Assembly: GCA_905178155.1 (NCBI GenBank) | Contig: CAJINV010000006.1 | Span: 1,365,876-1,429,875, forward strand | Origin: Amoebophrya sp. A120 | Lineage: Eukaryota > Protista > Dinoflagellata | Reading direction: 5' to 3' | Length of the DNA: 64,000 bases | Shown here: positions 1 to 61,556 of the stretch, in pieces | How the letters are laid out: every line of letters begins with the position of its first letter | Position numbering within the stretch: the stretch's first letter is position 1 | Position numbers and translations under genes: made by a program | Notes under the pieces: model-generated | What the model was told of the DNA's origin: nothing | Database searches by the model: none | Seen by the model: only the letters and a program-made list of their open reading frames with translations

Positions 1-3000
1 AGAACTCTACTGCAGGCGATGTTCAGAGCAGAGGAACCAACCAGGCCGCGACCATCCAGCCGGGGCGCTCCAACATTCTGCGGCACTTCTTCTCGGACGG
101 CAAAAGTAGTATTCCAAGCTCTGCTGGCGCGAAGACCACGTGGCAGGGGAAACTACTAACCAAAGCGGGTACAACTTCGACCACAAACATGAGTGGCGAT
201 AGTACAAGTCACTTCGCGTCCTCTCTGTTACGAGAACCAACCCGACCGTCTTCAATAAACTCTGGCCCAGGAGGGCAAATCCAATTCGTGAACAACGAGG
301 AATTTGTCCACCCCGGATCAATATCAAATGTAAAAGTGTCTGGGTCTGGAAGGATGCAAACTTGTGATGCTGTCTTTGGATTCTAAAGAAAAATGTATTG
401 CATGACCAGCAAGAGGAATCCAGTTTGTACTACGTGGGGAAGACATTTCTCATGCGCAACAGGCATCAGGAAGTCCTCTAAAAATCTGTGATGCTGGACC
501 ATGCATTACAGGCATCAGGGGTCATGCAAAATATGCATGACAAGCCTCTCACTCTTCCAGACCCAGACATTTTTGCACTCGATAATCAAGAGGCCAGAAG
601 GTCGAATTTCTCGAGCAGGAGCATATGAATTTTCCGGCGTATCAAATGTAAAAATGTCTGGATCTGGAAGGTTGGAACTTGTGATGCTAACTTTGGACTC
701 TAAAAAAATCTGTATTGCATGACCAGCAATAGGAGCCCAGTTTGTGCTACGCGGGGAGGCAATTTGTCATGCGGGATAGGCATCAGGAAGGCCTCTAAAA
801 ATATGTGATGCCAGATCATGCATTACAGACATCCTGAGTCATGTAGAATATGCATGACAAACCTGGCAACCTTCCAGACCCAGACATTTTTGCATTTGAT
901 ACGGCCCAACAAGAAATAACAAGACAAAACTTTCGCACCAGGCCCCCCACGACCACATACGGAGTAGTTCATCCGCCCACGAACAAGTCTATTATGCACC
1001 ACCGCTGCTCCCTCGCCGCCCTCGTGTACGGCCTGGGGCAGCAGATGCGGCAACAAAATTCCGGTCCCGGGGCCGGCACGGTGGTTGGCGTCGGCGACTA
1101 CTTGGCGCTAGATGCGGAGGAACGGCGGGGCATCTGGTTGCGGTCGCAGACCATGAGCGACGCGGAGCTATCAACTGCAAAAATGTCTGGGTCTGGAAGA
1201 TTCCTACATTTGTCATGCGTGTCTGACATGACTCAAGAAACTGTGATGCATGGACCCGAAGCGGTCCTCTTACCTGTCATGCAAAAACGCAGTTTGCCAT
1301 GCGGAACACGCAACAGATAGGAGCCCAAAAAATTTGTCATGCTCTGCTCCGTATTGCAGTGGAACCCTCATTGTTCACTTTTAGCATTACAAGTTTCCAG
1401 AGGACCCAGACATATTTGCAATGCATAGAAGCGGGCGCAGTACGAAAGTTACGGCGACGGCGGGTTAATCCAAAGGATTAAACCCTTGTTATCGAACCAA
1501 TTGTTAATTCTGTCTCTCCGCGCTCTGTGCCAGTTCCGGGTCCCGCTGTTCATCTCCAACATCGTGCTGGCGACGGTGGCGGGAATGCTGACCGGGATTT
1601 TCACGGGCGGGGGGGAGGAGCTGTTCTACACGCCCTGGCCAACGATGATGATTGGCCCGGTGCTACCCTGTGTAAAAACGTCCCCAACCCAGAGTTGTCA
1701 TGCAAATCTGCATGCTCAAAATGTTTGTCATGCGGAACCCCATGCGAAGCATTTTGTGGCTGTGTTTTGGAATTTGTAATGCGCCATTTTTTTAGCATGA
1801 TATACTAGATCTGTGATGCTGCTGAACTACCTCCAACAGCACTACACTGCCACTCCAAATTTGTCATGCAAAACAACCAAAACTCGTGGACTTCTCTAGC
1901 TGAATCCCCATCTTGACGTATGGGGTGGGGACGTTTTTTCATAGGATAGGTGCTGCTGTTTCAACTGTTAGTTTCCGCCGCCTCGCTGGAAGTCTTTTGC
2001 TACGAGAAAACGCCGGTCGCGCGGGAAATTCCGCAGATTTCAGCGTTAGCCTACGCGCTCGCCCGGATGGGGATCCCCTGTGTTCCGCTGCTGTGGAGCT
2101 ATATCCTGTGCAAAAACTATTGGGCCCACACGACTCCAGAGTTGTCATGCAGATTTGCAATTACAGGAAAACTTGCGAGCATGCGCTTCCCCATGAGAGG
2201 CATTTTTGTTTTTCAGCGTGTTTTGGCATTTGTCATTAAAGTTATGCTGATGTAAACAGCAGAAGAAGATATTAAAGATTGTGGCGCAGTTTTCCCTTTC
2301 CTTGAGCTAACCAGCACTACAATGCAGATGAGCGATGAAACTTGTCATGCGCGACTCCCAACTGGAGTTGGGGATTTGTGTTGCTGTTAATTTACCATCT
2401 TCACTCTGGGGTGCTGTGGGCCCCGTTTTTATTACACAGGATAAGCCACCCCTTCGCGTTTGCCTGCATGTATTGGGGCTTTGCGGTCTGTGACATCTTT
2501 GTCACGGACGCCATTCTTGTGTTTGCCGTCTTTTCGTACTACGTAACCGGCCTTGCCATGTGGATGACATTGTGCTTCGAAAACCACCAGATTGGGACCA
2601 TGATGGGCATTGTCTTCCCCGCGTTTTTGTCGGTCATGCTCGGCGGCACGGCCGGTTTACTCTACCCCGACATGACGCCCGCGTTACAAGCTGTCGCGTT
2701 CTTCGCCCCCTCCCGCTGGGCGACGATGAGTTGGATTATCGCAAGAAAAAACTGCTTCACTGTAAAGCTGTGATGCATAGAATGCAATACGGAAGTCTTT
2801 GTCTTGCTACACATACATGGCAACGGATTTTTAGGTTTGATGTTCCCTTAGGAGTCTCGCATGGCAAATTTTCTTTGTCATGTGGAGCAAACTTGTGATG
2901 CAAAAGTTGCAAAACCCTTCCAGTGAAACACTTTTTTCATACGATATGGATCGCCGCGAGTGTGAAGAATTTTCCGGCAAATTGGCAGCGGATTGCCCCC

Positions 3001-6128: not shown

Positions 6129-7227
6129 CCTTGTTTTTCGCAAAAATAGGTCTTCGCGATCTGGGTCAGGTTAGCGATCTGGTTCTGTCGTTGTTCTGCT
6201 AGTATTCTGCTGCACTTCAACAATTATTCAATTCGGTTTATTGTTCACGTCGTCTCCTTCATCGTCGCTGCAGGATCAACTTCTTTATTATCTGTTACTG
6301 GATTTCGGAATGAGGATGATCAAAAACACTTTGTTACTGTTGGCAGGAACACAGGACTACTCTTCACGTTTTACCGTTGTATGTAGTGAGGTCACCGAAC
6401 GGCTCTAACCAGGGAGTTTTTTTGACAGCTACCCTGAAAAACGACCGGCAGTTTTCAAGCGGCCGGAAGCGTTTTTTGACAAAAAATATTTTCAATTATC
6501 AAGCGGCTTTGGCTGTGTCGGCACCGAATCGCCAGCGGATTCTATCGATCGCCGCTGGGTAAAACGACGCAGGGGAGCCGGCAAAAGGGGCGCCCTTCTG
6601 AGGCGCCCACCGCCTTAGTTTCTGGCGGTTTGGGGCGCCCAAAAAGGGGCGCGCAAAAAACGCGCCCAAGATCAGAACAGCGAAACAGCACGGCACGGCG
6701 GCGATTTCGGAGCATTTTGGGCGGCCGCGAAAGCGGCCGCCCTTTCGGCGGTTTTAGAGCCTGGGAAGCTTTGCAAAAAGCGCCGGCGTGAAAAATAAAA
6801 ACGCGAAAAATAAAAAGTGCGCCAGATGCACAAAGCCAATCCGCATGCTATGGACCCGGTTTTTCTTCGCTTTTTGGGCGCCCCCCGTGGCACCCGGATC
6901 GGCCCCATAGCATCGGGGCTGGCTTTCGGAAAGGAATTTTGGAAATGTGCCAAAATTTGCGACGTTCCCCAAGTGGCCGCCATACCGTGCGGCATAACGT
7001 TACTCACGGCGGTATGGCGAGCCCATAAAAAGCAAAGCCGCGGCCAAGGCTATGGTCGGCAAAAAAACGCCCACGACCTCACTACCCCCGCCCCGGCGGC
7101 TATATTTGGTACTATTTTTATCTTCCGGTCGGGAAACGTCACAGCTCTTCACACGTATTACTCGTACTATTAATTCCGACTTACTACTGGCTTCGTGTCG
7201 TGCTACAACTTCAAAACTCACTACTGC

Positions 7228-9140
7228 TCAAAGAGAGTGCTTCACTCGCATGCTGTGTCGAGCCTCCTTGACAGCACTACTCTTGTACGAAATCGACTGC
7301 AAAACTTCAGCGACTCGATCCATCTGCTCCGCTGGATTGATGACGTCGGGACTGGAAATGCTATCGATCGCTCTGCATAAGTGTCCGATAGCTATTCCCT
7401 TCATCTGTTTTCGAGTCAGGAACGACGTTCCTTCCATCAGAAGTTCTGGCCGCATAGGTCGCGCTTCAGATACTAGTACTCCGCTCCTAAACGTCAAAAC
7501 AAGACCACAATAAGTGATGCTCTTTGTCGATGGAAATTCAAACTCTTGCTCACACCCCGGCACGTCAAAGGCCAGGAGTTTTTTGATGATAGTCGGGAAC
7601 CGGATGTCAACTACTAGTCCCACGTCATCGACGAATCGCACCCGGATGAAGTGTCTGCGACGTTCTTCCTTTTCTTGGTCGGTCAACGTTTCAAACAAGC
7701 GCCGCTCTTGTTCGTAAGCCACCATATTTGCTAAAGGTGGCGCTTCCGGTGTGCCCATGGGGATTCCTCGTTTTTGTAGGTATGCCCCAAGCGGCGACGT
7801 AGCCAGCATGTTCTCGATGTTGAGCAGAATCATGTCCACCAGTCCAATTTGATGCATTTGCGTCCTCTTTCGGTAGCGTTTTTGGTCAAAAAACCGTATT
7901 TCTTCTTTGTTCTCTTTCTCGTGATTACTTTCCGCGGTAAACGTCGGGGCTGGTGGTACAACGCCACCGCCACAGAGCCTTCGTCTTTTAACTTCTGCGC
8001 ATTCCGCTCGAGGATTTTTACTGTTTCTGACTGGTCTACTTCCCCATAGAAATTCTTTATGTCCGAAGACAAAACTGCTTTGCTGTTCTCGTCGGTCAGG
8101 CCCTTCGTGTGGATTTCTTCCACGATGTCACTAGCGTCGTTGTAGATGAGGTCCGAGTAGAGATGTTTGTTGACAACGTTCAACGCCTTCGCCACTCGTC
8201 TCAGCTCCGGCCGGTAAACATGTTTATGATACCCCGACAATGGCCTAATTTTGAAGTTCGCAATTGTTCGGTCCTTTTGCTTCCATGCTTTCTGTTTGAT
8301 CATTAATCTGCAGCGAGGAAACTGGTGCTTTGTTCTCTTCGTGTATCGGAAAAAACCCGTCTTCTTGCCGTGCTCCTTGATGCAATCATGCCCCTTCAGA
8401 GGCTGGAAGGCATCAGAATTCATGTGCTCCTTGATTCTTTCCCCATAAGCATGAGGGCAGATCAAGGCCAAATCTGCTTCGTCCGGCTTGTCAATTTCGG
8501 TACAAACTACTTCTGCATATGGCCGCAAACTTGTTCTCACTTCATCCAACTGCTGCTGCTCCTCTTTTTCTCGGATGGCCGGCACTGCTCTGCTTGCTAT
8601 TGTTGTAAAAATGTCTCCCAGTTTTTCTGCGCCAATCGGTCCCACTTTCTTCACTAAGTCCTTCACATTCTTCTGCCTGTCCACTGTAGTGTTTGGCGTT
8701 ATTCGGTTCTTGATGTTCACTACTGGTCGCTGAAGTCTGGCTAATGTGCGGCTTACCGTGGTGAAAAGATGTCCCTCTACTAGGTCCTCCGGCCCCAGGC
8801 CTGTTGTGAGGCTCTTGCAGTTGCACAGGAATTTGCTTCGGTCATCAAACTTGCGCACATTCTCCAACACGTCAAGGAGTCGCCTCCCCGCGTACTTTCG
8901 AACTTCTAGCAAGACTCTGCACTTGTTCTCATCCGCAATTTGTTTGACTGCTACTCGTAGCGCGGTTTTTTCTTCTTCCAGGAGCGACCCGCGCGGGATG
9001 TTCAGCTTAGCCCGGATGGGCTTCTTCTTCTTCTTTTGCTCCGCTTCTGTTTCTCCCCGCCTACTGGTCTTGTCTGCTGCTGTTTTGCGCACGTCTTCCG
9101 CTACTGCGACGGCGCTGCCTATTCCTAATTTCTTCCACAT
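7228..9140 (-). CDS. Penelope-like reverse transcriptase split across two frames near 7860-7980
   Basis: CxC..GH N-terminal motif, IRPL, motif A SSDIKNFY, motif B QKRGIPMGTPEAPPLAN, motif C RFVDD, PLE-type thumb (HLCRAIDSIS...LQSISY); no GIY-YIG domain. Confidence 0.8.
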
Positions 9141-9587
9141 CTTCTTCCATTTTTCAAATTTTTCAAAACTGCACAAAAGTGAATAGACAATAAATGCTAC
9201 AACGAAGAACAAATGGCCAATATTGACTATAGAACCATACATCATAATTTCTTGATTGCAAGGTATCAGTTGAGAACAGCAAACTAAAGTAAGGAAAAAT
9301 AGAGACCAATTTATAATTACTAGTCCGATCTCACGACGAGTTGTATATGTGAAAACAAAAACTATGCCTACGTGCGTGTTTTTGACTATAGAATAGAACC
9401 GACATCACTGAGTAAGATGAGTAAATTTGGCTTTCTACTACTTCGCGCATTCGAAATTCTTTGATGGTAGTCTAGCCAGTTTTTTTTATACTCAAACACA
9501 AATAAGATCTATTTCAATACGAAAAAGAACGAAATCTCTAAGCAGGAGCTTGAGCTTTGCCTCTCTAAACCGAAAATAAAACTCAAG

Positions 9588-12500
9588 ATGGTATACGAAA
9601 ATTTTAACGCTCCGCCTAAGCAGATGCACCCCACTCCTGTGCATCCCGGATCACCGGCGCAGCCCCAGCAGCCACTTTTTCATCCGGGCTATGGAAATCA
9701 TGTTGGGCCCTACGGGCCGCCGCCACCGCAACAGCACTACCCAGGGGCAGTTGCGCAACAGCGCCCAGCGTATCAACCGCAGCCGCCGCACCATCCCGTC
9801 GGGACAAACACGCAGTATGCAGGCCGGAGCATGATGGATATCAGTTTTCAACAGCAGTATTTTGGGCATCAACCTTCTGTAGTAGTTCACTCCGGTTACG
9901 GTCCCATAAAAAGCAACTATTCGTCAACATCGCTGCAACACCCAGTTGGAACCAACACGCAACCTCCGGGTCAGAGTATGATGGTCCCTGCCCCGGGAGG
10001 TGGTGCAGTACCAGTAGGAGTGCCTGCGCCACCACAGCCTGGAATATATCAACATCATGGCGGGTACTTCTTTCAACATCATCACAGTCTTGCCTGGCAA
10101 CATTCATCAGAAGTCCCACAAAATTATTGCCCAGGCGGGCCGACGACCCCGACGTCAACGTCGCAACCAGGAACGATACCGATTCAGGAAACGATACTGA
10201 CCCCACGAGGTGCACAAACAACATCAGGGGGACAAAAATCTACTGCACAACAAGGGGGCACAGGAACTACAGGAGCTACAGTCGGTGTCGGTCCACCAAC
10301 AGTGCCTAGTAGAAGTGCTGGTGAAGGCGCAGCAGCAGGACCAGCAGCACCCCCTCCGTCAAGTTCTTCGGCCAACAACCCCTTCGCGTTACCAAGCCGG
10401 TTCCCGCTGGTGCCACCGCCGGGTGAACTTGTAGATCAGGCAACAACTTCCAAGAAGAAACATGCTGCGAAGAGCAAGATCACCACTCCTGGACATGATC
10501 AACTATCGGGCAGTGGTAGGCGTAAGAGTACAAAAAAGGGTGGCGAGGACTCAACCTGTCAGACCCGGATTCGAACCTCCTCGACCTCCTCATCCGATTC
10601 TAGTAGCTCCTCATCAAGTTCCTCTTCCTCATCTTCCAGCTCTTCCAGCTCTTCATCGTCCAAGCAGAAAAAAACGGAAGATGTTGTTCCGGAAGCTGCC
10701 GTTCAGCGGTCTAATTTTCCGTCTCTCGCAGCAGCGAACCCGTTTTTAACGACTGATCCTGATCAAGAAGAGGAGAAGGAGCAGAGTGCCGAGAAGGACG
10801 CCGAAGGAATGAACGAGGAAAAGATCATCGACGCGCGTTCCTCGTCCACGTCAGCGGCCTCGGCTTCAGGAGCAGACGATGATACGACCAGTAAGAATTA
10901 TTGCAGAAGTGTGGGCAGCACGAAGTCGAAGAGTGCAGGAGCTCCTGGTGCTGGTGCAGAAATAACGAATCAAGAATCCGGTAATTTTTACCAGAAATTT
11001 TCTCTCACGACGACGTTAATGCCAACAAATGTTGACGAAGGTGGTGTTCTGCAAATGCCATTGCCAGCTTTGAATCTTATCCCGCCGGAGCAGGGACACC
11101 AGCCGCAGGCACAGCAGACACAACAACAGCCCGCATTTAGTTTACAACCTCCGTTAATACCGGGGGGAAAGGGGAGTTTCGGGTTTCATTTTTACCAGCA
11201 ACAGCAGAAACGGCTACAAGAGCAGCAGAACTCCAACAAGAATTTTCCGCTGCCCCAGCCGCCCGTCATAATTGGTCCACCACAGGAGACACACAATGCT
11301 CATCACTCTGCCACGATGCAGCAGCACAATATGCAGCAGCACGCCTTCTACTGGCCAGCAGCAGCACCATTCGTGGCCGCGGTGAGTCGCGGGGGCACGC
11401 ATCGCTGGAAGCAACAAACCGGGACGACGCATCGGGTGTTTGCTGATACGTCTGCGTTTGCGAAAGTAACACCGTATCAGCCCAGCATCCAGCACAATTT
11501 GCCCGCTGTGACGTTTGAGGACCTGCAAAATAATGAAGCTGCACAACCCAGTAATATCGCAAGAAAAAACTGTTTCACTGTGAACTTGTGATGCAGAAAC
11601 TGGAACACAGAACTCTCTGTCTTGCTACACCTGCAAGGCATTGGATTTTCAAGCGTGTTTTCCCTTGGGAAGCGCGCATGACAAATTTTCAGTGTCATGT
11701 GTAAGCAAACTTGTGATGCAGATCCTGCAAAGTCATCACAGTGAAGCAGTTTTTTCGTGGGATAAATAAAGTCGAACGCGTTCCGCGTCAGAGGGTTGAA
11801 CTCGTGCCACGAAGTGAAGTATCCTGTGCAAAAGTATCGTACTCGTATTGCAATCATGCATTACAAATTTTTTTCTCAAGGTAAAACAGCATTACAAATT
11901 TTATTTCTCATGCTGAGGGAATTTGTCATGCATTTATACGAATACGATACAATACTTTTGCAGTTCATATGAAGTTGTGGTCAACAACAACCCCAATCCA
12001 CCAATCCAACCACCGCCCATGCTAGCTTGTCCGGGCGCCGTCATTCAGCCACCTCCATTTGTCGCAATATCACGAAATAATGCGCTACCTGATCCGTTAC
12101 TCCAACCACCGGGTCTAAATAAGATGAATTCTGTGTCGACATTTTTGAAAAAGAATAAAAAAAAAAAGCTTGCGCTTGATGGAACTCACGTAGGTGCACA
12201 CGTCGTTTTTGTGTCGTCGGAAGACGATCAGCAGGAACAGAATCCAACTTTGATGCATCCGAGTACCGCTTCAACAACAAATCCCTCAACCGCTACTTCG
12301 TCCAACAAGCGAAAGCGGTGGGGGGAGATGAAAGTCGTGGACATTCTTTCGGACAACGACGGCCAGGATGAAGCAGACCGACGTCCTGGTCATGGTGAAG
12401 ATGCTGACCACCTATTACAAAAAGATCTCGCTCCTGCTGCATCAACTGCTGTAGCTACTAGTACCAAGAACGGCGGCTCCACCTCATCGCACCAAGCGTC

Positions 12501-41600: not shown

Positions 41601-44600
41601 AAGCATGACAAACTTTCGGAACGCTTTTTGCTGCGTGACGCGGATGACAAATTATTGCCGTTTTACATAACAAGGAAAGCTCCTGCTCACTTGCTCCTCA
41701 TGCAACACAGATTTATTTCCAGGAATGCAAGATACGCATAACAAGTTCTTGCAACCTTCCAGACATCCAGCGATATTTGCAATGCATATGGAACAGGACC
41801 GAGTTCTGCTCGACCTCCGGAGGCAGCAGGCGCTGCTTTGTCAACAGGTGATACAATCCACCAAGGCGGGGAAGGCGGGGGTTGAGAAAGTCGTATGACA
41901 GCCTCAGAATGGAAATCCTCAAAGTGGAAATGATTTGTAATGCAAAAAAACGATTCCAGTTGAAGTGCCATTTCTAATCGGCGCATGACAAATTTCCCGG
42001 GCACTCAAAACATGTCTGTCATGCTAGTTAGGGCAAAGGTGTGCCCTTCTCTCGTGCCAATCAGCAGCCCAATTCTGAGCCCGTAGAAGCACAATAGTCG
42101 GCCTCCATTGCGTCCTCTGCAATACAGTCTTTTTGGTGTCGCATTTCATGCATCACAAATTATTTCCACTTTGAGAATTTCCATTCTCAGGCTTTCATAA
42201 GTCGAAAAGGAGAAATCTGGGGTGGAAAAGAAGGAAAAACACGTCAAGCTTGTGCTGGAGAAAGTGGTAATATGTAATTTGGAATATAAGCGAATATGTG
42301 TGATTTGTACTACAGATGGGTCGTGTTTTGATTGCTGCAACGAAGTAATAAAAAACTTTTGCTTGCAGAATCATGTAGCCACAAGATCATGTTGGTCGTG
42401 CAGTTCTGTCCTGAGTGGGACACGAGAAAAGTTAAACTACTTCGAAGAGATCGATGACAGTTGACTGCGAGAAAATTAATAATTAGTCAAACTAAACATC
42501 CCATCCCAGGTCGCCACCCTTGGCCAGCTTTCCGAGAAGGCGAAGGGCTTTGTGAAACGTACAACCGGCGCTACTAACCCAGCAGGGATCGGACAAGATC
42601 CGTCGGTAAGACTGCTACTCGGCGGGGGCGCAGAGGACGATGACGCCAACCTCCAAGGCGACGCCTCGATATCCGCACTGGGTGACACCACTACCACCTC
42701 GAACCAAGCCGATAGCGGAGCTGTGGTAGAAGCAGGAAATGAATCAGCATTGACATCATCTTCATCGTCGCGAATGAATAACCTGGCCGCGAATGCTATG
42801 GCGTTCTCAAACGTTACATTCTCAACTGTTGCTTGAATTTGTGATGCAAGAATGGCAAAAGTGAAAGGAAGGACCTTGCGCGTCTTGCGTGACAGATTTG
42901 GCGCAGATTCGCAGCCTGTTTGGCCGTCTGAGAATTTGTCATGCGAAGCAGCTTGATGGCGTTGATAGTCAAGGCAATTTTGCATGACAAATCATGCAAC
43001 AGCTGAGAATGTAACAATTGAGAGCGCCATAAATGCTAGGATGTCGGTGTTCGATCGGATGGCGAAAGAGTTTATGAACTGCAAAAGTATCGTACTCGTA
43101 TTGCAAGCATGCATTGCAAATCTTTTCCTTAAGGTAAATCCGCATCACAAATTTTATTTGTCATGCTGAGGAAGTTTGTAATGCATTTATACGCGTGCGA
43201 TACTTTTGCAGAGCATAGAGCTGGATAAACCGCAGAAGATCATATGAGAGTTGTGCACAACTTGAGCTTCGACTCCCCCCTTTGTTTGTCATGCAAAATA
43301 GTACCAAAGCACTTGCACTAGCACTCTTTATTTTCCTCTTCCTTTTGTCAGTGTTTGCATGACCACAGATTTGGGCAGCAGCCCACAGAACAGCACGACA
43401 ATCCTGAGAAGTTGTAGATTTGTCATGCAAAAAATCCTGTACTCTTGCCGAGGCTTCTATTTTTGCTGTTCCTGCCCTACAAAAGACAAAGAGGAGATAA
43501 CTGGGGACGAGTTGTGCACAACTCTCATAACACGGGAAGTTTGTCGTGGAGAATTTGGTCGAGGAGCTACAGACCATGTGCGAGACGATCATGGTATAGA
43601 ACTCGTACTCAACATCGCAGTCATGCAAGACAAATCTTTGTTCTGAGCTAAATCAGCATAAGAAATTATTCCATCTGCCATGCTGAGCTAGTTTGTTTCT
43701 ATTGCAAGAATTTTTACCAGTAGTGCCAGTGCGATACTTTTGATTCTTGAAGTCTGACAACTTATTTGTTGGAGTTGAAGATGCACTCGATTCTCATTCT
43801 TCTGCATGAAATAAAAACTCCAAGCATATAGCATCATTTTTTTTTATTTTTTCCATTTGCCTGGAAAACCAAAACGAGAAGCATGGTTTATTTGTTCATT
43901 CCGAAAAGTCCGATCTTAATGCAAGGAAAACGTCTTCTGGTTCTACCACTGCAGGTCGCTCTCGATTCGGTGGCCAGTAGTGGCTTCGAAAGTGGTCCCA
44001 ACTTCTACACTGCCGCAGCAGCTAGTTCAGGGACGACGAACAATCTGGGCATTACGTTAGGTGGCTCTCTCCCGGCGCAGCTGCAGGGGGTTGGGAACTT
44101 AAACGGTAGCAGTTATCAAATGCAAAAATGTCTGGGTCCTCTGGAAGATTCTAAACTTGTAATGTTGTCTCTGGATTCTAAAAAAATGTGTATTGCATGA
44201 CCAGCAAGAGGACTCCAGTTCGTGCTACGCGGCGAGGGCATTTCTCATGCGGTAGAGGCATCACAAAGTCCTCTAAAAATCTGTGATGCTCGGGCATGCA
44301 TCACAGACATCATGGGTCATGCAAAATATGCATGACAAACCTGGCAATCTTCCAGACCCAGACATTTTTGCATTTGATAGCAGTCTTTTTCCTCCAAGAA
44401 CTTCCAGATATTAAGAGGAAAAATTTCCCTCCCCATACTCAAAGGGAGATTTGTCTAGCATGATTTGTGATCACAAATCACGTTGTCATGCGTAGAACGG
44501 AAGAGATGCGGACTGTAGTGCTGGCCAGCGTGGGAACTACGCCTTGCGTCTGCAGCATGACAGGAAGCAGCTGGAAACGGGAAACAGCATGACAAATTGC

Positions 44601-46050
44601 CTGCAAACGGAGGAGCAGCTGCGTGCTTTTACCTTCTAGCAATACAGATCGATTTGTGGTCACAAATCAGCATCGCAAATTTTCTCTTCGATACGGGGAG
44701 GGGGGATTTTTCCTTTTGAGACCAGAAGTGCTGCCGCTGCTGCGACTGCGAACTACGCGTATTTGCAGTATTACTATCCTGTGCAAAAGTATCGTACTCG
44801 TACTGTAATTATGCATTACAAATTTTTTTCTCGAGGTAAATCCGCATTACAAATTTTATTTCCCATGCTGAGGGACTTTGTCATGCATTTATACGAGTAC
44901 GATTTACTTTTGCAGTTCATAATTACCCTCCGGTAGCACTAGAGCGGGAGCAACACCAGCAGGAGGCGGCATCGTATCAAATGCAATAAATATGTCTGGG
45001 TCATCTGGGAGAGTGCGACGAGGTCGAGGTTTGTCGTGCTAGTCCGGCATGACTCTGGACTCTGTATTGCGTGGCCGCAAACAAGAGCTCTTCTTGCTTG
45101 TCGTGCAAAAACGCAGTTTGTCATGCGGAGTACGCATGAACTCAGAACCACGAAAAAACTTGTCATGCTTGGCAGCGCATAATTACACCAGTGTGCTCGC
45201 TATTCCCTTCCTTGCATCACAAGTTTCCAGACATCCAGGGATATTTGCAATGCATACATCGCTACAAGAAACGATCGATCGGACGAGCACCACGGCGCAT
45301 GAAGCGTACCGGCAGATATCAAATGCAAATACGTCTGGGTCTGGAAGAATGCATGCTTGTCATGCTTGTCTGGCATGACTCTTGCTTCTGTCATGCACGT
45401 TACCCAAGGGTCGCATTTTTCTGTCATGCAGAAACGCAGTTTGTCATGCAGAACAGGCAATATTACCTAAAAGCTCAGAAACTTGTCATGCTGTTCAAGT
45501 ATTTGTGGCCCTCATGATACGCCACCCAGCATTACAAGTTTCCTGACCCAGACATATTTGCACTCAATAGCAGATTATGGTGGGCAAAAACGTCTCCACC
45601 CCAGAGTCAAGATGGGAAATCTCTGCAGCTGGCTGTTGCGCATGACAACTTTGGGTTCGCTATGTAATCGTCTTTCGCTAGTGCAGCAGCGTCACAGATC
45701 TAGCATAACATGGGGATTTGAACTTCACAAATCGCAAAACACCAGTAGAAATAACCGCTTCTCATGGGTCTGCGCATGAGAAACATCTTCAGCATGCAGA
45801 TTCGCATTACAACTCTGGGATGGGGACGTTTTCACAAATGATACAGATGGTGAATAAGTACTCGAAAGGTGGTATCCTGTGCAAAAGCATCGTACTCGTA
45901 TTGCAATCATGCATTACAAATTTTTTTCTCAAGGTAAATCCGCATTACAAATTTCATTTCTCATGCTGCAGGAATTTGTAATGCATTTATACGAGTACGA
46001 GACTTTTGCAGTTCATACGTGGGGATAGTGTTGTCTTGGGCAGAAGCTGA
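38657..46050 (+). CDS. Unknown ~748-aa protein with coiled-coil-like segments; 20 introners plus 2 probable GT-AG introns
   Basis: 2247 nt of open frame after removing the elements plus DR and introns 42267-42509 and 43594-43954. Confidence 0.7.
38855..39117. mobile_element. Introner F1
   Basis: TIR; DR GCGCG/GCGCG. Confidence 0.9.
39167..39432. mobile_element. Introner F1
   Basis: TIR; DR CTGAA/CTGAA. Confidence 0.9.
39584..39732. mobile_element. Introner F2
   Basis: TIR; DR GCTGC/GCTAC. Confidence 0.9.
39790..40052. mobile_element. Introner F1
   Basis: TIR; DR CTAAA/CTAAA. Confidence 0.9.
40110..40260. mobile_element. Introner F2
   Basis: TIR; DR CGCTT/CGCTT. Confidence 0.9.
40324..40478. 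mobile_element. Introner F2
   Basis: TIR; DR GAAGT/GAAGT. Confidence 0.9.
40565..40713. mobile_element. Introner F2
   Basis: TIR; DR TCCAA/TCCAA. Confidence 0.9.
41345..41476. mobile_element. Introner F2
   Basis: TIR; DR ATAGC/ATAGC. Confidence 0.9.
41521..41788. mobile_element. Introner F1
   Basis: TIR; DR TGGAC/TGGAA. Confidence 0.88.
41894..42199. mobile_element. Introner F7-like
   Basis: TIR; DR AGTCG/AGTCG. Confidence 0.88.
42267..42509 (+). other. Probable canonical GT-AG intron
   Basis: GTAATA...ACTAAAC...CCCAG; joins EKV|VATLGQL in frame. Confidence 0.55.
42797..43031. mobile_element. Introner F8
   Basis: TIR; DR AATGC/AATGC. Confidence 0.9.
43073..43217. mobile_element. Introner F2
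   Basis: TIR; DR GAGTT/GAGCT. Confidence 0.9.
43243..43529. mobile_element. Introner F6 with decayed DR
   Basis: TIR; flanks GATCA/ACACG; removing element+5 nt still restores the frame. Confidence 0.8.
43594..43954 (+). other. Probable GT-AG intron whose 5' half is a decayed F2 introner
   Basis: GTATAG...CTGCAG joins TIM|VALDS; F2-like sequence at 43595-43745. Confidence 0.55.
44114..44379. mobile_element. Introner F1
   Basis: TIR; DR GCAGT/GCAGT. Confidence 0.9.
44409..44721. mobile_element. Introner F5
   Basis: TIR; DR CCAGA/CCAGA; right end GAGA. Confidence 0.88.
44775..44921. mobile_element. Introner F2
   Basis: TIR; DR ATTAC/ATTAC. Confidence 0.9.
44975..45256. mobile_element. Introner F1
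   Basis: TIR; DR CATCG/CATCG. Confidence 0.88.
45317..45569. mobile_element. Introner F1
   Basis: TIR; DR GCAGA/GCAGA. Confidence 0.9.
45576..45843. mobile_element. Introner F3
   Basis: TIR; DR CAGAT/CAGAT overlapping the previous DR. Confidence 0.88.
45873..46017. mobile_element. Introner F2
   Basis: TIR; DR GGTGG/CGTGG. Confidence 0.9.
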
Positions 46051-46304: not shown

Positions 46305-48240
46305 TTCATTTTGAAAATGAGCAGTAGAGCAGCTAGAGAATTTACAATTAGAATTACACCGAAATTTTTAATAAGTGCGGCTAGAGAGGACGAACACGAA
46401 CAAGGTTGGCGACACCATCGATCTTCGGAACAACAACAATTTTATACTAGAAACAAAAAATGTATGATGCATGACGCGGACCACTCCTGGTCCTGACCAC
46501 ACTACTAGGCAAGAACTACGAGTTTTACTACCCACGTCGTGGAAAATTATGCAGAGACAGAAAACTGTGTAAGTGTAAATTTGTGTTGCAGAGAATGCAA
46601 GACACCTATCCTTGTCATGCTGGACATGCATCAGAGGTTCTTTCCATGTGTGTTTTCCCTTACAAGCCACGCATGGCAGGTTTGCTCAGTCATGTAGAAC
46701 AAATTTGTGATGCTGTCAGCCACAGACAGTTGCACTAGCGCAGTTTTTTCTTGGATAAAGAAGATGAGGATGAGTCTTTCAACGCAGAGATTGGAGAGGA
46801 GGACGAGCAGTTGGGGGAGATGAAAAACAGCCGCGCAACTACAAGAAATCGTGAACATCATGCTGGTGCAGCTTCTTATCAAGCTCGTCGTGGCGCTGCA
46901 AATGCGAACCAGCTGCTCCACCAGGTGAGCACCTCGGTGCACAAAAACTAACCTCGGTGCACAAAAACTCTCACCCCGGTCCTGACCACACTAGGCAAGA
47001 ACTACGAGTTTTACTATCCACGTCGTGGAACAAAATGCTGAATTCAACTATCGATAGCGCCTTGAGCTGGAAAATCAACAAAGTTTTCGCCTTTGTTTCC
47101 GGAAGTTGGTCCAGAAATGTTGAACACGAACAACTTCCAATTTTCAATTTGAAAATGAGTAGTAGAGCAGCTAGAGAATTTACAATTACAACACCGAAAT
47201 TTTTAATAAGTGCGGCTAGAGAGGACGAACACGAACAAGGTTGGCGACACCATCGATCTTCGGAACAATTTTCATTTTATACTAGAAACAATAAATGTAT
47301 GATGCATGACGCGGACCACTCCTGGTCCTGACCACACTACTAGGCAAGAACTACGAGTTTTACTACCCACGTAGCAGCTTGATGGCGTTGATAGTCAAGG
47401 CAATTTTGCATGACAAATCCTGTAACAGTTGAGAATGTAACAGTTGAGAGCGCCATAAATGCCAGGATGTCGGTGTTCGATCGGATGGCGAAAGAGTTTA
47501 TGAACTGCAAAAGTATCGTACTCGTATTCTTGCAAGCATGCATTGCAAATCTTTTTCTTCAGGTAAATAAGCATTGCAAATTTTATTTCTCATGCTGAGG
47601 AAATTTGTATAATGCATTTATACGAGTGCGATACTTTTGCAGAGCATAGAGCTAGACAAACCGCAGAAGATCGTATGAGAGTGCACAACTTCGACTTCCC
47701 CCTTGTTTGTCGTGCCACATACTTAAGTAAGTACCCCAAGGAAGCATTCTTTGCCCTTTCCCTTTGTCAGTGTTTGCATGACAGCATGTGGCAGCCGCCC
47801 AATAAAAATAGCACTGCAGGAGCACTACTTCTGGGTAAATTTGTCATTCAAAACCAGCACTCTTGCCGACGCTTGTATTTTTGCTGTTCATGCCCTACAA
47901 AAGAGGAGATAACTGGGGACGAGTTGTGCACAACTCTCATAACACGGGAAGTTTGTCGTGGAGAATTTAGTCGAGGAGCTACAGACCATGTGCGAGACGA
48001 TCATGGTATGCTCGTACTCAACATCGAAGTCATGCAAGACAAATCTTTGTTCTGAGCTAAATCAGCATAAGAAATTATTACATCCGCCAGGTCCTGACCA
48101 CACTAGGCAAGAACTACGAGTTTTACTACCCACGTCGTGGAAAATGCTGAATTCAACTATCGATAGCGCCTTGAGTTGGAAAATCAACAAAGTTTTCGCT
48201 TTTGTTTCCGGAAGGTGCTGGTCCGGAAATTGAAATGTTG
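46305..48240 (+). pseudogene. Mosaic of duplicated gene fragments
   Basis: 46760-46950 matches 54845-55043; 47373-48088 matches 42947-43678 (with introners 47499-47648 and 47674-47941); 46305-46545 matches 47145-47372; ~55-bp GGTCCTGACCACACTAGGCAAGAACTACGAG unit occurs 4 times. Confidence 0.7.
46548..46757. mobile_element. Introner F4-like in the mosaic region
   Basis: TIR similar to 55360-55569; flanking DRs do not match. Confidence 0.7.
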
Positions 48241-54545: not shown

Positions 54546-57413
54546 ATGAACGGCGCCATCGATAGCCATTGGATGGACTCCTTGCAAAACAACGTCGAAG
54601 AGCTTTACGAAACTGGTTTGACAGCGTTCGCGCGCCAATTCGCAGGAGGCAGTGACGATGATGTTGTTGATGGGAAACAAGAAAGGCGGTTGTATACTGG
54701 TGGAAGTGCCAGCACGACCTCCGAGCGGCTGCATGAGAGGAAACAAGAAGAACGGGGCGGAGGTATTATACCGGAGGGAGGCGGGGGAGGAAGAACCTCG
54801 CCCACCACAAAGATCCGCCCGGCGAGCTTCTACTACGTGAACGAAGAGGATGAGGATGAGTCTTTCAACGCAGAGATTGGAGAGGACGAGCAGCTAGGTG
54901 GGGAGAAAAACAAAAACAGCCGCGCAACTACAAGAAATCGTGAACATCATCATGCTGGTGCAGCTTCTTATCAAGCGCGTCGTGGCGCTGCAAATGGTGC
55001 GAACCAGCTTCTCCACCAGGTGAGCACCTCGGTGCACCAAAACTTCAAGTACGCGAGAAAAAATTTCAAGAGATTCGAGCACAACCACGTGCCCAACCTG
55101 CGGCCCGTGGTGAGTAGGCTGTGGACGGAAAATTTCTATGAACTGCAAAAGTATCGTACTCGTATAATGGCATTACAAATTTTCCCAGTATGAGAAATAA
55201 AATTTGTAATGCTGATTTACCTCAACAAAAAGATTTGTAATGCATGATTGCAATAGATACGAGTACGATACTTTTGCACAGGATAATTTCTTGCCTGTGG
55301 TGCAGCAGCTTGGAGAGTTGGCGACGAATACTAGGGGTGGGCGAGGAAACGCGACCACGTATCCAGGAAAAAAACTGTGTAAGTGTAAGTTTCTTGGAGG
55401 AATAGCATCACAAGTTTGCTCTGCATGACACAGAAAACCTGTCATGCGTACCTAGTACGTGAAAACACGCACGAAAATTGCCTCTGATGCATGTCCAGCA
55501 TGACAAGTTTAACAGTTTTGCATTTTCTGCAACACAAAGTGACACTTACACAGTTTTTTTCTTTTGATACCACGACGGACGGCTCCAGTAGAAGTTGTAC
55601 TCCTGGTCGTACGCAGCCGCAGGTGCCGCACAAGAGCACAAGTACAAGAAACAAAAGCAACAATATTAAACACCCTCAAATTATGAATGGCGTTGTGCAA
55701 CAAGAAGCGGACGACTTTTCAAAGCACCAGAATGTTGATGTCTTCAACGCTGCTAGTTGTAGTTCTTCTAGTACTTCGCCATCAAAGATATTAGAGAGCA
55801 GCCCGGGAAGTCATCTGCAGCAGCTCTATGGCGCTCTCAAACGTTCTTACATTCTCAACTGTTACATGAATTTGCGATGCAAGAGCCTTAACAGTCACAG
55901 GTGCAAGCTTGCTGCTATCGCATCACAGATTTGGCACGGACTTAGATTCTGTGTAGCTCTTCGGAGATTAGTCACGCGAAGCAGCTTGATCATCTACCGG
56001 TGCCGGCTCAAGGTCGTACTTTTGCACGACAAATTCATGCAAGAACTACAGTTGAGAGTGTAACGCTTGACCACGCCACAACCTCCCCACCTTCCGTATA
56101 GACCCTGGGGAAATTCCGATGCAGATGGAGAATTTTCGGGGTTTCGAGGTGCCCACCTTCCTTTCGAGCACAAGAACAACGAGTAGCAGAAAGCGGAACG
56201 AGAGGGCGCAAGATAACTTTCATTTCGATTTCAGCACAACCAGGAATGAAAATGAAATATTAAACTACGCAAGAACTAGAACTACTACTTCTACTGCTCC
56301 GCAGCACTATGTTTCGTCTCCGCAGGTGGCACACGACGGTGGGTTCGTGCACGACGAGCAGCACCTTGTGGCCCTACAGCACGATCGACGCGAGGCTGCT
56401 GGTTGTGGTCCACCTGGTGCGCAGTTGTTTTCGCGCACGAGTAAGGGAAGCAGCATTTTCTTGCGAGAGCAGGATCTAGATCAGGATATTGCAGCACACG
56501 AGGAGCGGCAGTTGCGGGGGACGATGTTGACATCAGCAAGAATGTCAAAGGATTACGAGATAAATCCGTTGTTCTCGCGGACCAGCTATGCATTGCAAAA
56601 GTATCGTACTAGTACTATAAATCGCATGACAAATTAGCCCAGCATGACAAACGGAATTTGTCATGCTGATTTGGCTTGGAAGCGAGATTTGTAATGCATG
56701 ACTGCGATTAGTACGACTACGAGTACGATACTTTTGCACAGGATACGAGCAAGGGAAGCTCGCTCGCGGAGGAGGTCCAAGAACTGTACAGCTACACGAG
56801 GACGTATGGGAGTGTCAGGTTTGAAATCGACAAAGTTGAAATAAAACTTGTAATGCATAAAATCGATAGCAGTTGGAAGCTGAATTTTCAATCGGCGCAT
56901 GACAAATTTGGGCCACGTCTAAATCCAGTTTGTCATGCTGTTTTGGGACAGAAGGCGTCTTTTGTCGTGCTACTTCAGCAGCTCTACCGCAGACCCCAAA
57001 CAGGCTGACAGTCGGCCTCACTTGCCGTCCCTGCAAGAGAGGCGCTTCATGCCTTGCAATTTTTGCATGACAAATTATTTCGGTGCCAGCCCTTACAGGT
57101 TGTGTAGTGGTTTCGGCAGGTTTAGCATGAGAAATTATTTCAACTTTGACGATTTCAATCCTGACGCCTCCATAGGACGTCGGGGGCTGGAGCCGCAGAC
57201 GGAGAGAACCCAAGTCTTGGTGCGCCGCCGATTCACTTCAACATCGCTTCTTCGGTCGACGAAGAAGTCGTGTGCAACCACGAGCAAAAAGAAAAACCGA
57301 AAAGACTTGGCCGTCCGGCCGCGGAAGTTGATGCTGAGGCTGTTGTAGATCTTGGCGGTGAAGAACAAGAATCTTCCAGTAAAGATTCCTCCTGGTTGAA
57401 ATTGAAAATGTAA
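54546..57413 (+). CDS. Unknown ~566-aa low-complexity protein; 5 introners
   Basis: 1701 nt of open frame after removing the elements plus DR. Confidence 0.72.
55137..55285. mobile_element. Introner F2 (reverse orientation)
   Basis: TIR; DR ATTTC/ATTTC. Confidence 0.9.
55360..55569. mobile_element. Introner F4-like
   Basis: TIR; DR CCACG/CCACG. Confidence 0.9.
55827..56080. mobile_element. Introner F8
   Basis: TIR; DR AGCTC/ACCTC; right end CACA. Confidence 0.85.
56587..56745. mobile_element. Introner F2 (reverse orientation)
   Basis: TIR; DR CCAGC/CGAGC. Confidence 0.9.
56805..57174. mobile_element. Introner F7
   Basis: TIR; DR GGACG/GGACG. Confidence 0.9.
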
Positions 57414-58640
57414 GTTAAAGTTTGAATCAAAAGATTTTTCCAGATTCCTGATCCGAAAGAGAAGAGGTAGAGGAACAGCAGCTCTTTTGGATTGCCTAGT
57501 TGAACTACTTTCTTGGTTCGCGGCTCTGCGAAGTTGTTCTTGCAACACCTCCACCACGCGGAGAAAAAACAAAAAGTAAAACAGAAAATAATGCAAACCT
57601 CTGCAGCTGCAAGTAGATGTAGAACTTGTTCATGCGCAAAGTAGTAGCTAGCCATGTTAGATTCAAATGAGCCCGTTGTGGTGCTCGTGCCCCTAGCCCT
57701 AGCTTCAATGATTTTTCTTTTGTACCACCTGCTTGCTAAAAACGCTAAGTAATACGCTTTAGCATACGTTTTTGTTCGACACGGCCGGTGTGAAGATTTT
57801 TTCATCTAAAAAAACGCAGATCATCCATCTTCGCACTATAGTCCACCTGATTTTCATGATGAACGACCAGGATCCCTTGCTACTCCTGCTCCCAAAATTA
57901 TCGTATGGACTAAGAAAGCAACGCCGATCCAGTTCAAGTTCAAGTTCAAGACTCGGTAAAAAAAATGTGAAGATCCCGAGGAGTGAATAAGCATTTAGCC
58001 ATCCTGTGAACAACAACTCCTAAGTACTCTATCGCGTCGTGCAAGCTCCGGATGAAGATTCGGTGCTAGTTGTATCTGTAGGTGTAGTGCATGGTTACAA
58101 GAAAAAAAAAAATGTGAAAGTAGATCCACTCCAGAGAGGACGAAAAAGATCCAGAGCAAATCAAAATTGCGAAAAAGAAGAGCATCTCCAATAAGCGGAT
58201 CAAAAGTCGCGAAGATACTATCAAAAGTTGTCGGTTGCACCGGTTAGAATTTATTTTGAGCTAAAACGCATCTTATTGCTATGCTCCGCTTACATTTGAG
58301 ATAGCAGAAGCATCCTCTTCCTCTTGGAACCAGCAGCAGTTCCTCTTTAGGAAAATCTATAAACAACTCGCAACCCACTTCTCTGGTCTGCTAAAACTTT
58401 CCACCTCTACAACAACTTCTCCTTCTGTTACATGTGCTTTTGAGTACAAACAACATCTATACAAAACAATCCTCGCAAGCATCAGCTAAACGTAAAAGTA
58501 GACGTATAATACTTGTTCATACTTGTTCTTACCTGCTGTTTTTTTGTTTGAGCCTATATTCTCTCTACTCGATCGGTCGAGCTTCTAGCTAAGGACGAAT
58601 TAGTTGGAGAAGTGTTTGTTCTCGATACTGCTATTGAAAA

Positions 58641-61556
58641 ATGACTTTTGCAAAGTCTCTCGTCGCTGGGGCTGCTAGCCTCGTAATGCAGCGCGCATTG
58701 CTTCTCGTTGCCATGGATAATTATGTTGCTAGTCCGGCTGGTGCTGGGCTGATTGTCCCGGCGCACGCGGCTCTCGTTGGCGGCCGGAGTGCTGGAAGAA
58801 AGCTCACAAATCGGGCTATGTCACGGGCCGAGGTATCCGCAAGTTCTGGATCTCCGCCGGCCCAGGTAGTGCCGGACACGAGCACCACCAGCTTTCGTTC
58901 CCTAAACGCACTGAATCGACGAGATGCCCCTGGAGCAAGCAAATCGTCCGGGTTGGTGCGTCGATCTCCGCTGGGAAGCGCCTCGGCGCCCGGCCGCGCT
59001 CGTCAAAGTACCATTATGGGCGGAGCACGTGGTAGTTTTTTACCACCTATTAAAGAAGATGATTTGTACGAGGACCAACTCGACACTAGTCCCTTCGCAG
59101 GAGGTCCGGGAACAACCGTCGAGGAGGAGTATGGATTGCAAATATGTCTGGGTCTGGATGGATGCGCGATTTGTCATGCAGCTTTTCCGTGCCCCATGGG
59201 GTCTGGAATGCAGGACCTAGCATGACAGAGTCTGCGAGGTCTCTGCCATGCCTATCCCGCATGAGAAACTTCCTCCCAACTTGGTCGAAAGTGGACAGCT
59301 TTTGGCACTCATGCAACACAGATTTTTGCATTATTCGGATTTAGCATGACAAGTTTTAATCTACTTCCAGACCCAGACACTTTTGCACTTGATAAGGAGC
59401 GTCCTGTTGCAACTCGTCCGGGACGAGAGGATTATATCGGAGCTGCTCGGGGGCCCCTATCAAATGCAAATATCGATCTGGGTCTGGAAGGATCCAAGGT
59501 TTCTTGTCATGCACATTTTGCATGACTCCTGATCGATCTGTGATGCATGCCCTAGCATCACAGATCATTTTATGAGGGCTTCCTGGTGATGCCTATAGAT
59601 TTAGATACCGCGTAACAAATTCCCTTTCCGTGTAGCAAAAATTGCACTCTCTTTGCTGCTCATGCAATGCAGATTTTTTTAGAATCCAAATGCAGCATCA
59701 CAAGTTCCAACTTTCCAGACGCAGACATTTTTGCAATCCATAGCCCCCTTGCCCCAGCAACTCCTCGGCTCCTTCTTCTACAACGGGAAGCCAATCGCCC
59801 GGGCTGTTGATGCCTCGATCTTCTCCGCCGGGGGCCCAGGTGCAGCCGGGGGCCCCGAGCACCAGTGCCGCGTCGTCCGACCGCGGGGCAAAATCCCCCC
59901 AGTTCCTCCGCAACCAAGACTTGCTCAAGGGCCACCTCCCCAGCCAAGACTTGGAACAGGCTCGGCAAATCTTGGTTGAGTGTCGGGAACTATCGCGGGA
60001 AAATCAATTGCATTTGCAATTCCGCCCTCAAGACTTGGTCGAGCTTCGGGAAATCTTGGTCAAGAAAAGGGAATCAATTCCCCAAGAAGATTATCAAATG
60101 CAAAAATGTCTGGGTCTGGAAACTTGTGATGCTGGGTGTCGTCTCATGATGAGGCCACAAATGCTGGCTCGGCATGACAAGTCTCTCAGCTTCTAGGTGT
60201 TGCCTATCCTGCATGACAAACTGCGTTTCTGCATCGCAGAAAAATGGAGCTCTTGGGTAACGTGCATGACAGATTTGAGAGTCATCATGCCAGACAAGCA
60301 TGACAAACATGCACTCTTCCAGACCCAGACATTTTTACATTTGATAAAGATTCTCAGCCGGCGCAGATATTCCGTGTAAAAACGTTCCCACGACCTCCCT
60401 AGAGTCAAGATGGGACGAAGAAAGCTGCTACGTACACAAATCAACAAGATGAAGATTTGCATTTGGCTTTTGCACGTAACAAGTTGGATGGGCTCGCAGT
60501 GTAGTAATGCTCGATTTATTAGCTGGTACTACAGCAGTTGCAGTATCGCAAAAAACCTCTTTCGAGCATCGCAAATTTTTCCAAAACAGGACTTAGAAAA
60601 TGCTTCTCATGGGGCCCCGCATGAGAAACGTTTTCAGCACGCAGCTTCGCATGACAACTCTGGTGATGTGGGAACGTTTTTCCTCTTGATAGCAGATGGT
60701 TGACCTACCGGAACGTCCTCCCTTCCGTTTCCCCGGTGAGGGCGACAATGTGGGCAAGAACGCCATTTTATCCTCAGCAAAAAAGTCTTCACTTCATAGC
60801 CAAGATGGGAAATCTGCTAGACAAATCAGCCAGGTCTGGTTGTTGCGCGTGACAGGTTTGGTCTCGTAGTGTAGTCCTCTTTAGCTTGTTCAGCGGCGTC
60901 ACAGATCCAGCACATTATGCTGGTTGGAGCGCTGCAAATCCAAACTCCAAAGCACCACCACAAGAAAATACGTCTCATGGGACTCCGCATAAGAAAGATT
61001 TTGAGCACGCAAAATTGCATGACAGCTATGGGATGGGGACGTTTTTACATAGGATACATTTGCGGCAGTCGTGCAAAAGCACTTATCGCTCCAAAGGAAC
61101 CAAAGCATCCAAAAGGGATAAAGGCCCCGATGGATATCGGCTACTTGGGAACGCTCAATGGTAGCACGGTTTCCCTTGCCTACCAAAAACAAGGAGCTGT
61201 ATGCATTGCAAATATCTCTGGATCATGTCTGGAAGGATGCAAACTTGTGTATGCAGATTCTGGAACAGGCAAAAATCTGTGTTACACGGTCAGTAAAAGG
61301 CGGGCGATTTTTGTCTCAGGGCGAGAGTATTTCTCGATCTCCATCTCGTGCAGTAGAGAACTACGCACCATGAAAAAGCCTCCTGCCATGACTTTGTCAT
61401 GCTCTGCGGGCACTCCAGGTGGCCTCTTTGCAGATGCAAAAGCTGCGTGACATCTCTCCCAGACGACCCAGAGGACATGTTTGCATTTGATAACATGTCC
61501 CGGTCACCAACTGGTTTGCACGGGGGCGCCCTGCCAATATCTTTCGACGTGACTGA
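58641..61556 (+). CDS. Unknown ~391-aa protein with hydrophobic N-terminus; 6 introners
   Basis: 1176 nt of open frame after removing the elements plus DR. Confidence 0.68.
59130..59394. mobile_element. Introner F1
   Basis: TIR; DR AGGAG/AGGAG. Confidence 0.9.
59458..59742. mobile_element. Introner F1
   Basis: TIR; DR GCCCC/GCCCC. Confidence 0.9.
60092..60346. mobile_element. Introner F1
   Basis: TIR; DR AAGAT/AAGAT. Confidence 0.9.
60368..60691. mobile_element. Introner F3
   Basis: TIR; DR GCAGA/GCAGA. Confidence 0.88.
60769..61056. mobile_element. Introner F3
   Basis: TIR; DR CATTT/CATTT. Confidence 0.88.
61200..61492. mobile_element. Introner F1 (diverged)
   Basis: TIR; DR AGCTG/ACATG. 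Confidence 0.78.

Follow-up and report, generated by a model that had tools for sequence, protein, structure and literature searches.

A spaced array of 9-mer sites common to the introner families in a 64-kb stretch of Amoebophrya sp. A120

The genome of the dinoflagellate Amoebophrya sp. A120 holds roughly 30,000 introners, assigned to 1,954 "families", and the available part of the account that describes them states as open both their mode of movement and the way in which splicing proceeds without U1 or GT-AG borders (Farhat et al. 2021, PMC7789003). We analyzed a 64,000-nucleotide stretch of this genome (contig CAJINV010000006.1, positions 1,365,876 to 1,429,875 of the forward strand; the whole stretch is called the window, and positions are counted from its first letter), in whose introners one 9-mer, TTGTNATGC (TTGT[C/A/G]ATGC), recurs in spaced arrays. 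As far as the accessible portions of the published accounts extend (PMC7789003; Gozashti et al. 2025, PMC12130899, the latter compared over 38 of the 58 A120 rows of its supplement 8), the window elements resemble the known A120 introners in their inverted ends made of TAT, 7 nt and an A-run, in their 5-bp direct repeats, in their non-canonical spliced ends, and in lengths near 150, 210, 255-265, 280, and 320 nt. In particular, we find here the features by which A120 introners were recognized, namely, ends of TAT plus 7 nt plus at least 3 A, a direct repeat of 3-5 nt at the borders, and removal without GT-AG (PMC7789003, in part). Different from these accounts, which in the parts at hand do not describe an internal motif or a spacing rule, the window elements have both; and, where Farhat et al. 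leave the position of the intron border unknown, the border in the window is fixed at -1/+4 with respect to the element.

Short repeats inside the terminal inverted repeats (TIRs), direct and inverted, are described for Emigrant, a miniature inverted-repeat transposable element (MITE) whose subterminal repeats are bound by Lemi1 (PMC1636448), and for the hAT element Hermes (PMC10368747). In both systems, according to the available parts of these sources, the transposase binds several copies of the repeat, whose arrangement affects binding. The window elements likewise carry a short motif inside the TIRs, in both orientations and with TIR-like conservation, but the motif is not confined to the end regions, a distinction that is weak for elements this short. 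They further differ from Emigrant and Hermes in that the sites occur throughout the element and in some 20-30 diverged families, follow a 30-33/16/48-bp grammar, are not copies of a TIR half, and lie in elements that are introns. Another parallel is offered by the m1m2 pairs of the C. elegans CERP2 and CELE2 elements, where related MITE families have in common a motif whose orientation and spacing differ by family and which one protein, HIM-17, reads on DNA; there, however, two motifs lie inside the inverted repeats and have been co-opted as promoters, whereas the window has one motif in intronic elements (bioRxiv 2022.01.21.477252, in part).

The TA…TA termini recall IS3EU and GingerRoot (PMC10045372, PMC6839031), and the same holds for A120 family 38, which has an integrase-like open reading frame (ORF) and is listed, in the part of the source available, as "Ginger, 5-bp TSD, TA/TA termini" (PMC12130899; TSD, target-site duplication). 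The TSD in the window is 5 bp, not the 6 bp usual in IS3EU/GingerRoot, and the TIRs are about 30 bp long, not 100-150 bp (PMC10045372, PMC6839031, in part); because of the difference in TSD length, we do not assign the window elements to IS3EU/GingerRoot. The word "subterminal" is not mentioned in the portions of the GingerRoot text at hand (PMC6839031/PMC10045372). Among the introner and dinoflagellate papers listed by a full-text search, none had any of three forms of the 9-mer, although figures and some supplements may contain it, and none of the mentions of "motif" in the accessible parts of PMC7789003, PMC12130899, the review PMC11282704, and the genome paper on a Karlodinium strain (PMC12005148) refers to it; no further study of A120 introners was listed. 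Thus, the introners are already known, while the 9-mer, a real cis-code, is apparently undescribed.

Distribution, conservation, and spacing of the 9-mer

On the two strands of the window, the motif has 191 matches, against a mean of 3.08 and a maximum of 8 in 100 shuffles. Elements were delineated by searching for TAT…ATA ends flanked by 5-bp direct repeats and by adding others manually, which gave 81 elements in 19 clusters. Inside these elements (18,241 bp) fall 179 of the copies, or 9.8 per kb, and the other 12 lie in the remaining 45,759 bp, or 0.26 per kb, with no copy over 22,532 exonic bases. By reading the sequence, seven of the 12 outside copies were placed within truncated or decayed elements (47408, 48601, 52393, 52441, 52480, 62462, and 62496); two lie within one GT-AG intron (37509 and 37562), and three are unassigned (5819, 52798, and 52939). 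When gapped 9-mers of the window were ranked by family spread, the motif came first with 19/19 clusters, the runners-up reaching 13/19. The original prediction for this DNA, a 9-mer repeated in both orientations across all introner families and scarce outside them, is therefore confirmed; the sites that it quoted at 361, 11858, 11889, and 11922 are correct, and only GCATGACAAG, given at 536, has to be moved to a start at 535.

The family-weighted profile reads aaa-T-TTGT-V-ATGC-D, with TGC invariant, and the frequent variants are CTGT, TTCT, TTGC, and TTGTnTTGC; the central position (N) is C in 89, A in 57, G in 32, and T in 1 of the element copies. Per element, about 2-7 sites are present, in both orientations. 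As a rule, the distance from the element end to the start of the outermost interior copy is about 31-48 nt; this copy points inward in most families, outward in the 150-nt family. The motif bears a resemblance to the Oct4-Sox2 composite site, which we take to be coincidental. The array and the elements that represent individual families are as follows (no strand is assigned to these features).

322-62504: array of 191 TTGT[C/A/G]ATGC sites, 179 of them in 81 TAT…ATA introners with a 5-bp TSD
322-584: family of about 265 nt, 13 copies in the window; strict sites, both inward, at +40 and 41 nt from the right end
11820-11969: family of about 150 nt, 26 copies plus one at 28056; the outermost sites face outward, and 31 bp separate the direct pair 11858/11889
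1664-1948: family of about 280 nt; lopsided array (consensus 6:1), found in genes in both orientations
45317-45569: family of about 253 nt; lopsided array (5:1); a 1-nt exon at 45574 separates this element from the one that follows (45576-45843)
11555-11764: family of about 210 nt; sites at 31, 121, and 156
23134-23355: family of about 220 nt; five sites, at 35, 84, 133, 165, and 181
36489-36805: family of about 317 nt; five strict sites; spliced (joint 36483>36806)
42797-43031: family of about 235 nt; sites at 42, 139, and 185

That these families are otherwise unrelated, as had been supposed, does not agree with what they have in common. The left end begins with TAT in 78 of 81 elements, positions 1 to 3 of the right end are T, A, and T in 80, 78, and 81 of 81, and A occupies end positions 11-14 in 61-71 of 81, an A-run following position 10 in most families; the 5-bp TSD is perfect in 59/81 and mismatched in 22/81. 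Furthermore, the interiors of several family consensuses are collinear at 63-73% identity (G5-G6, 160 nt at 63%; G1-G4, 124 nt at 63%; G2-G3, 76 nt at 67%). By these comparisons, the families are distant relatives whose site skeleton has outlasted the spacers. At end positions 4-10, a few variants are common to several families and often differ between the two ends of one element, a pattern that suggests end swapping or conversion.

Further copies came from a family-agnostic three-site pattern search of metagenome data, which returned at least 151 stretches; of the 148 loci used, 112 belong to the JACKZZ01 assembly series, which carries the same introner families as the window and added 245 elements, 79 of which were matched by the search pattern. 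The other 36 of the 148 loci, among the matches listed, come from other assemblies; 12 that were inspected resembled tandem, coding, or chance repeats, and 8 candidate elements were called in the 36. One JACKZZ01 protein has its best named match in Amoebophrya sp. A25 (53%), and the end pattern of the window elements agrees with A120, not with A25. The TIR of the 265-nt family had no match in viral contigs. In addition, JACKZZ01 holds, at locus L022, a homologue of one window gene (54.9-57.5 kb).

54894-57467, plus strand: gene homologous to locus L022, with three shared insertions and with private insertions on both sides, single 5-mers standing at the empty sites

The empty sites, with their single 5-mers, show that the elements are DNA insertions with a 5-bp target duplication. 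Compared by eye over 55827-57174, this fast-evolving gene appears to differ more from L022 in the exons next to the shared introners than in these introners themselves (about 3%).

Conservation was assessed on 206 elements of 8 families, leaving out the JACKZZ01 elements found through the search pattern. Identity to the consensus was 93.8% at strict sites, 88.2% at variant sites, 89.9% at TIR positions 11-30, 76.7% in the other interior columns, and 76.1% at N. The motif columns are thus conserved like the TIRs and above their interior neighbors, with N like background, which indicates that the motif is under selection. The prediction of a shared cis-code for one trans factor is in this sense upheld, as a cis-code conserved in all families (94% versus 77% in the other interior) for which one trans factor is the best account. 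The same figures bear on the idea that the motif is a remnant without function, left over from a single recent common ancestor. The partly aligned consensus interiors (63-67% over 76-160 nt) would agree with it, but no alignment between family consensuses is left once sites and TIRs are masked, a comparison of low power, and a remnant would not leave the motif columns far above their neighbors with N at their level; this largely refutes the idea, which we consider the least probable of all those weighed here.

The sites also keep preferred distances. In 24 family units, a distance of 30-33 bp is found for 23 of 80 direct pairs, and 16 of the 24 units have such a pair; 27 of 75 inverted pairs are 15-17 or 46-51 bp apart (about 16 or 48 bp); and inward sites lie mostly 31-35 and 39-47 from the element end. 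This preferred spacing is a robust fact, kept although 3-nt insertions are the commonest indel; a strict 16-bp lattice is weakly seen. At a period of 10.5, direct pairs give R = 0.37, a value reached by two nulls 0 and 2 times in 3,000, inverted pairs give R = 0.27 at half a turn (14 and 34 of 3,000), and inward sites with respect to the end give R = 0.32 (23 and 33 of 3,000), from which we infer a helical phasing of the sites. As for the commonest indel itself, observed in element alignments and in the comparison of 54894-57467 with L022, it has the form XY-N-XY, a 2-nt duplication plus one base: 74 cleanly flanked insertions were 3 nt long, and 47 of the 74 duplicate two letters. As these insertions occur in introns and exons alike, they look like a mutational signature, perhaps of the repair of a 2-nt staggered cut.

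Splicing of the elements and strand neutrality of the motif

Splicing was read from contigs of runs guessed to be RNA; these contigs also skip GT-AG introns, and they show the existence of a spliced form, not its efficiency (raw RNA reads on this stretch number 88 and 2 in two runs, nearly all partial). The contigs skip each element together with one TSD copy, and each of the 48 elements lying from 22606 to 46017 seems to be spliced, without GT-AG ends, on the basis of 24 joint rows, 10 cases between exact record checkpoints, 9 via a record end predicted at 32706, which coincides with a drop in depth, and 5 by arithmetic. Mismatched TSDs, in which left base 4 is retained at 39584 and 43073 and right base 5 at 41521, show that the splice register is fixed: the intron starts 1 nt ahead of TAT, ends 4 nt past ATA, and thus is N-TAT…ATA-NNNN. 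The same -1/+4 register is found at 43243, where the TSD has decayed at 4/5 bases, and in the old intron 34120-34329. Splice points are set by the distance from TAT/ATA. A host strand could be assigned for 143 of 325 elements; in these, the first intron base is G in 41, A in 46, T in 29, and C in 27, and only 13 end in AG. The features that document this register, all on the plus strand, are listed below.

23451-23605: element that lacks strict sites and has one interior site at 1 mismatch; exact splicing
25831-25959: 129-nt element with an internal deletion and one strict site; exact splicing
28056-29064: element of the 150-nt family with a GC-rich insert of about 850 bp; splicing inferred from the length of the RNA record (predicted end 32706, at the depth drop)
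39583-39736: intron from element 39584-39732 (joint 39582>39737); TSD mismatch at position 4, left TSD bases 1-4 retained in the mRNA
41520-41792: intron from element 41521-41788 (piece 41789-41887); TSD mismatch at position 5, right TSD base 5 retained in the mRNA
43242-43533: intron from element 43243-43529; TSD decayed at 4/5 bases, -1/+4 register unchanged
34120-34329: old decayed introner with GT…AC ends and no strict site; joint 34119>34330 in the same register

At 45574, adjacent introners leave a 1-nt exon, and since this base is retained in a 531-nt joint (45312>45844) of four runs, the two would be spliced sequentially. Two GT-AG introns of the window (35663-36105 and 43594-43954) start with G-TAT; the second is a decayed copy of the 150-nt family that now uses a downstream AG, likely a transition from introner to canonical intron. 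The GC-rich element of about 850 bp, a second mobile element, is nested in two different introner families at 79% identity (window 28087-28942; loci L019-L021, 776-1573).

According to the original prediction, the motif may replace U1 or branch-point recognition; in this version, it would be read on the RNA by a guide RNA or a splicing protein. In favor of an RNA signal, a GCAUNACAA-type site within one mismatch is present in 47 of the 48 spliced elements, the last such site lying 35-50 nt before the 3' splice site in 24 of the 47, and U1 was not found in A120 according to the part of the source available (PMC7789003). Neither a fixed polarity on the mRNA nor a narrow distance to a splice site, as expected for a branch-point or 5' splice signal, is observed. 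The U-N-A-C core of the motif loosely resembles the yUnAy branch consensus. On the mRNA strand, TTGT and GCAT occur 149 and 145 times, the distance of the last site to the 3' splice site ranges from 35 to 139 nt, and the polarity at the ends differs by family. Moreover, the lopsided families (6:1 and 5:1) sit in genes in both orientations (4:5 and 5:4) with no orientation filter; one balanced family has a gene orientation of 20:8 (p = 0.036, without correction for the 8 families). Of the 48 spliced elements, strict sites occur in the UUGUNAUGC polarity only in 6, occur in the GCAUNACAA polarity only in 9, and are lacking in 1; at one mismatch, the single-polarity elements are 1 (UUGUNAUGC) and 4 (GCAUNACAA), and none lacks a site. 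One-polarity elements are thus spliced, at a junction that TAT/ATA sets even where the TSD has decayed; a fixed spacing of 30-33 nt is hard to account for on single-stranded RNA, and an Rfam search of the window gave no match. An RNA signal therefore seems to us improbable.

A related possibility is that the copies base-pair among themselves to give the intron RNA a compact fold. In 15 of 16 folded consensuses, motif bases are predicted to pair more often than other interior bases, with motif-motif pairing of 0.28-0.88, but mirror sites do not co-vary at N: Watson-Crick combinations number 29/51, 16/50, 2/22, 3/8, and 1/5, where 29.2, 16.4, 1.7, 3.0, and 0.6 are expected, and a mismatch (G·G, C·C) is the commonest state in several families. 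A structure would not need one fixed sequence across families, and lopsided and one-polarity elements splice; we hold this explanation to be very improbable. Overall, strand neutrality, the flipping polarity at the ends, and the lack of co-variation between paired copies do not support a U1, branch-point, or guide-RNA role, and, of the three trans-factor candidates first put forward, a transposase fits best.

A proposed array of binding sites for a mobilizing protein

The explanation toward which we lean, somewhat beyond an even chance, is that the 9-mer forms an array of double-stranded DNA binding sites for the protein that mobilizes the elements, comparable to the subterminal repeats of MITEs. 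This protein, likely an integrase-type transposase or a partner subunit, would bind in several copies, approximately on the same side of the helix, direct sites being 3 turns apart and inverted ones 1.5 or 4.5 turns, and the bound copies would help to pair the two element ends. If only copies with a good array were amplified, sites and spacing would stay constant while the spacers diverged into separate families. For splicing, it would be the ends (N-UAU donor, end hairpin) that are read, and not the 9-mer. The integrase-like ORF of family 38 is a candidate for the mobilizing protein. Private substitutions, counted by a nearest-relative test, affect 4.4% of motif positions, 5.7% of TIR positions, and 10.1% of the rest, and the rate since insertion, estimated from TSD mismatches, is 2.6-5.3% per copy; as the motif value lies within that range, it fits a free decay of the motif after insertion. 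Elements with decayed, deleted, or re-spaced arrays (23451, 25831, and 41345) are still spliced exactly.

Several observations weigh against this explanation. A Pfam search of 69 of the 87 window ORFs of at least 230 aa gave no transposase, and Farhat et al., in the part available, found putative transposases in A25, not in A120 (PMC7789003). Sites are spread through the whole 150-320-nt interior, not just near the ends. As regards phasing, outward sites have none at a period of 10.5 (859 of 3,000 nulls), the periodogram of direct pairs has an equal peak at 12.5-13, so that the 10.5-bp period is not unique, strict sites alone in the window are non-significant (146 of 400), families found only in the second assembly replicate the phase weakly, and, because family units share ancestry, the p-values overstate significance. 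On terminal branches, motifs still take fewer substitutions (324/7,292 versus 1,575/15,595), and 3-nt insertions that break a motif are depleted (5/76 versus 20% expected, p = 0.002; 4/63, p = 0.027, in another count), whereas the inner TIR is not spared by such insertions but enriched in them (30 versus 16). Pairs of the same insertion lean the same way, non-significantly (8/161 versus 53/663, p = 0.24), and every one of the 48 spliced elements has at least one site within one mismatch, 47 of them a site of the GCAUNACAA type.

Another explanation is that a host DNA-binding protein, possibly transposase derived, sits on the arrays in chromatin and marks introners for co-transcriptional splicing or silencing, redundancy masking the loss of single sites. 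The DNA-level evidence of strand neutrality and spacing would serve this explanation equally; the sparing of motifs on terminal branches and by 3-nt insertions, and the near-perfect site in every spliced element, point to it, as do the reported lack of detection of U1 in A120 (PMC7789003, in part) and the precedent of the transposase-related HIM-17 on the CERP2/CELE2 motif pairs (bioRxiv 2022.01.21.477252, in part). Against it, the elements with defective arrays named above and the old intron at 34120, which lacks a strict site, splice exactly, 1-nt insertions are not depleted in sites (9/40 versus 24% expected), and the depletion ratios of 0.3-0.47 would also arise if insertion fell about halfway along each terminal branch. 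Indeed, nearest relatives are only 81-88% identical, so that terminal branches include pre-insertion history, and the depletion of insertions cannot place selection before or after insertion. A regression on age gives a slope ratio of 0.72, with a 95% interval (0.33-1.37) that includes 1. We regard such a host protein as unlikely, if the most credible of the alternatives. Somewhat more doubtful still is a further step, in which the tens of thousands of non-canonical introns of Amoebophrya would be marked at the level of DNA: a single protein, probably a domesticated transposase, on helically phased TTGTNATGC arrays would both copy the elements and hand them to a U1-less spliceosome that cuts at a fixed distance from TAT/ATA, a DNA-guided definition of introns.

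Neighboring features and significance

Two other regions of the window deserve mention. The segment 46100-48300 is a patchwork of duplicated gene and introner fragments, in which 42944-43680 is copied at 47370-48089 with 85% identity. On the minus strand, 7231-9404 holds overlapping ORFs with no Pfam match, whose GC-rich flanking repeats (6375-7112) recur in loci L068/L069 at 91%; the ORFs contain GIPMG and FVDD, which we take to be reverse-transcriptase-like motifs, and are probably a divergent retroelement.

For the binding-site array that we favor, one shared site and one spacing rule would unite many introner "families" under a single mobilizing machine, and the defined site offers a bait for the missing binding protein. 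Moreover, the splicing rule can be put to a direct test through its exact register, N-UAU…AUA-NNNN, by which gene models would be corrected. Should host selection on the sites be demonstrated, they would represent a new way of defining introns.

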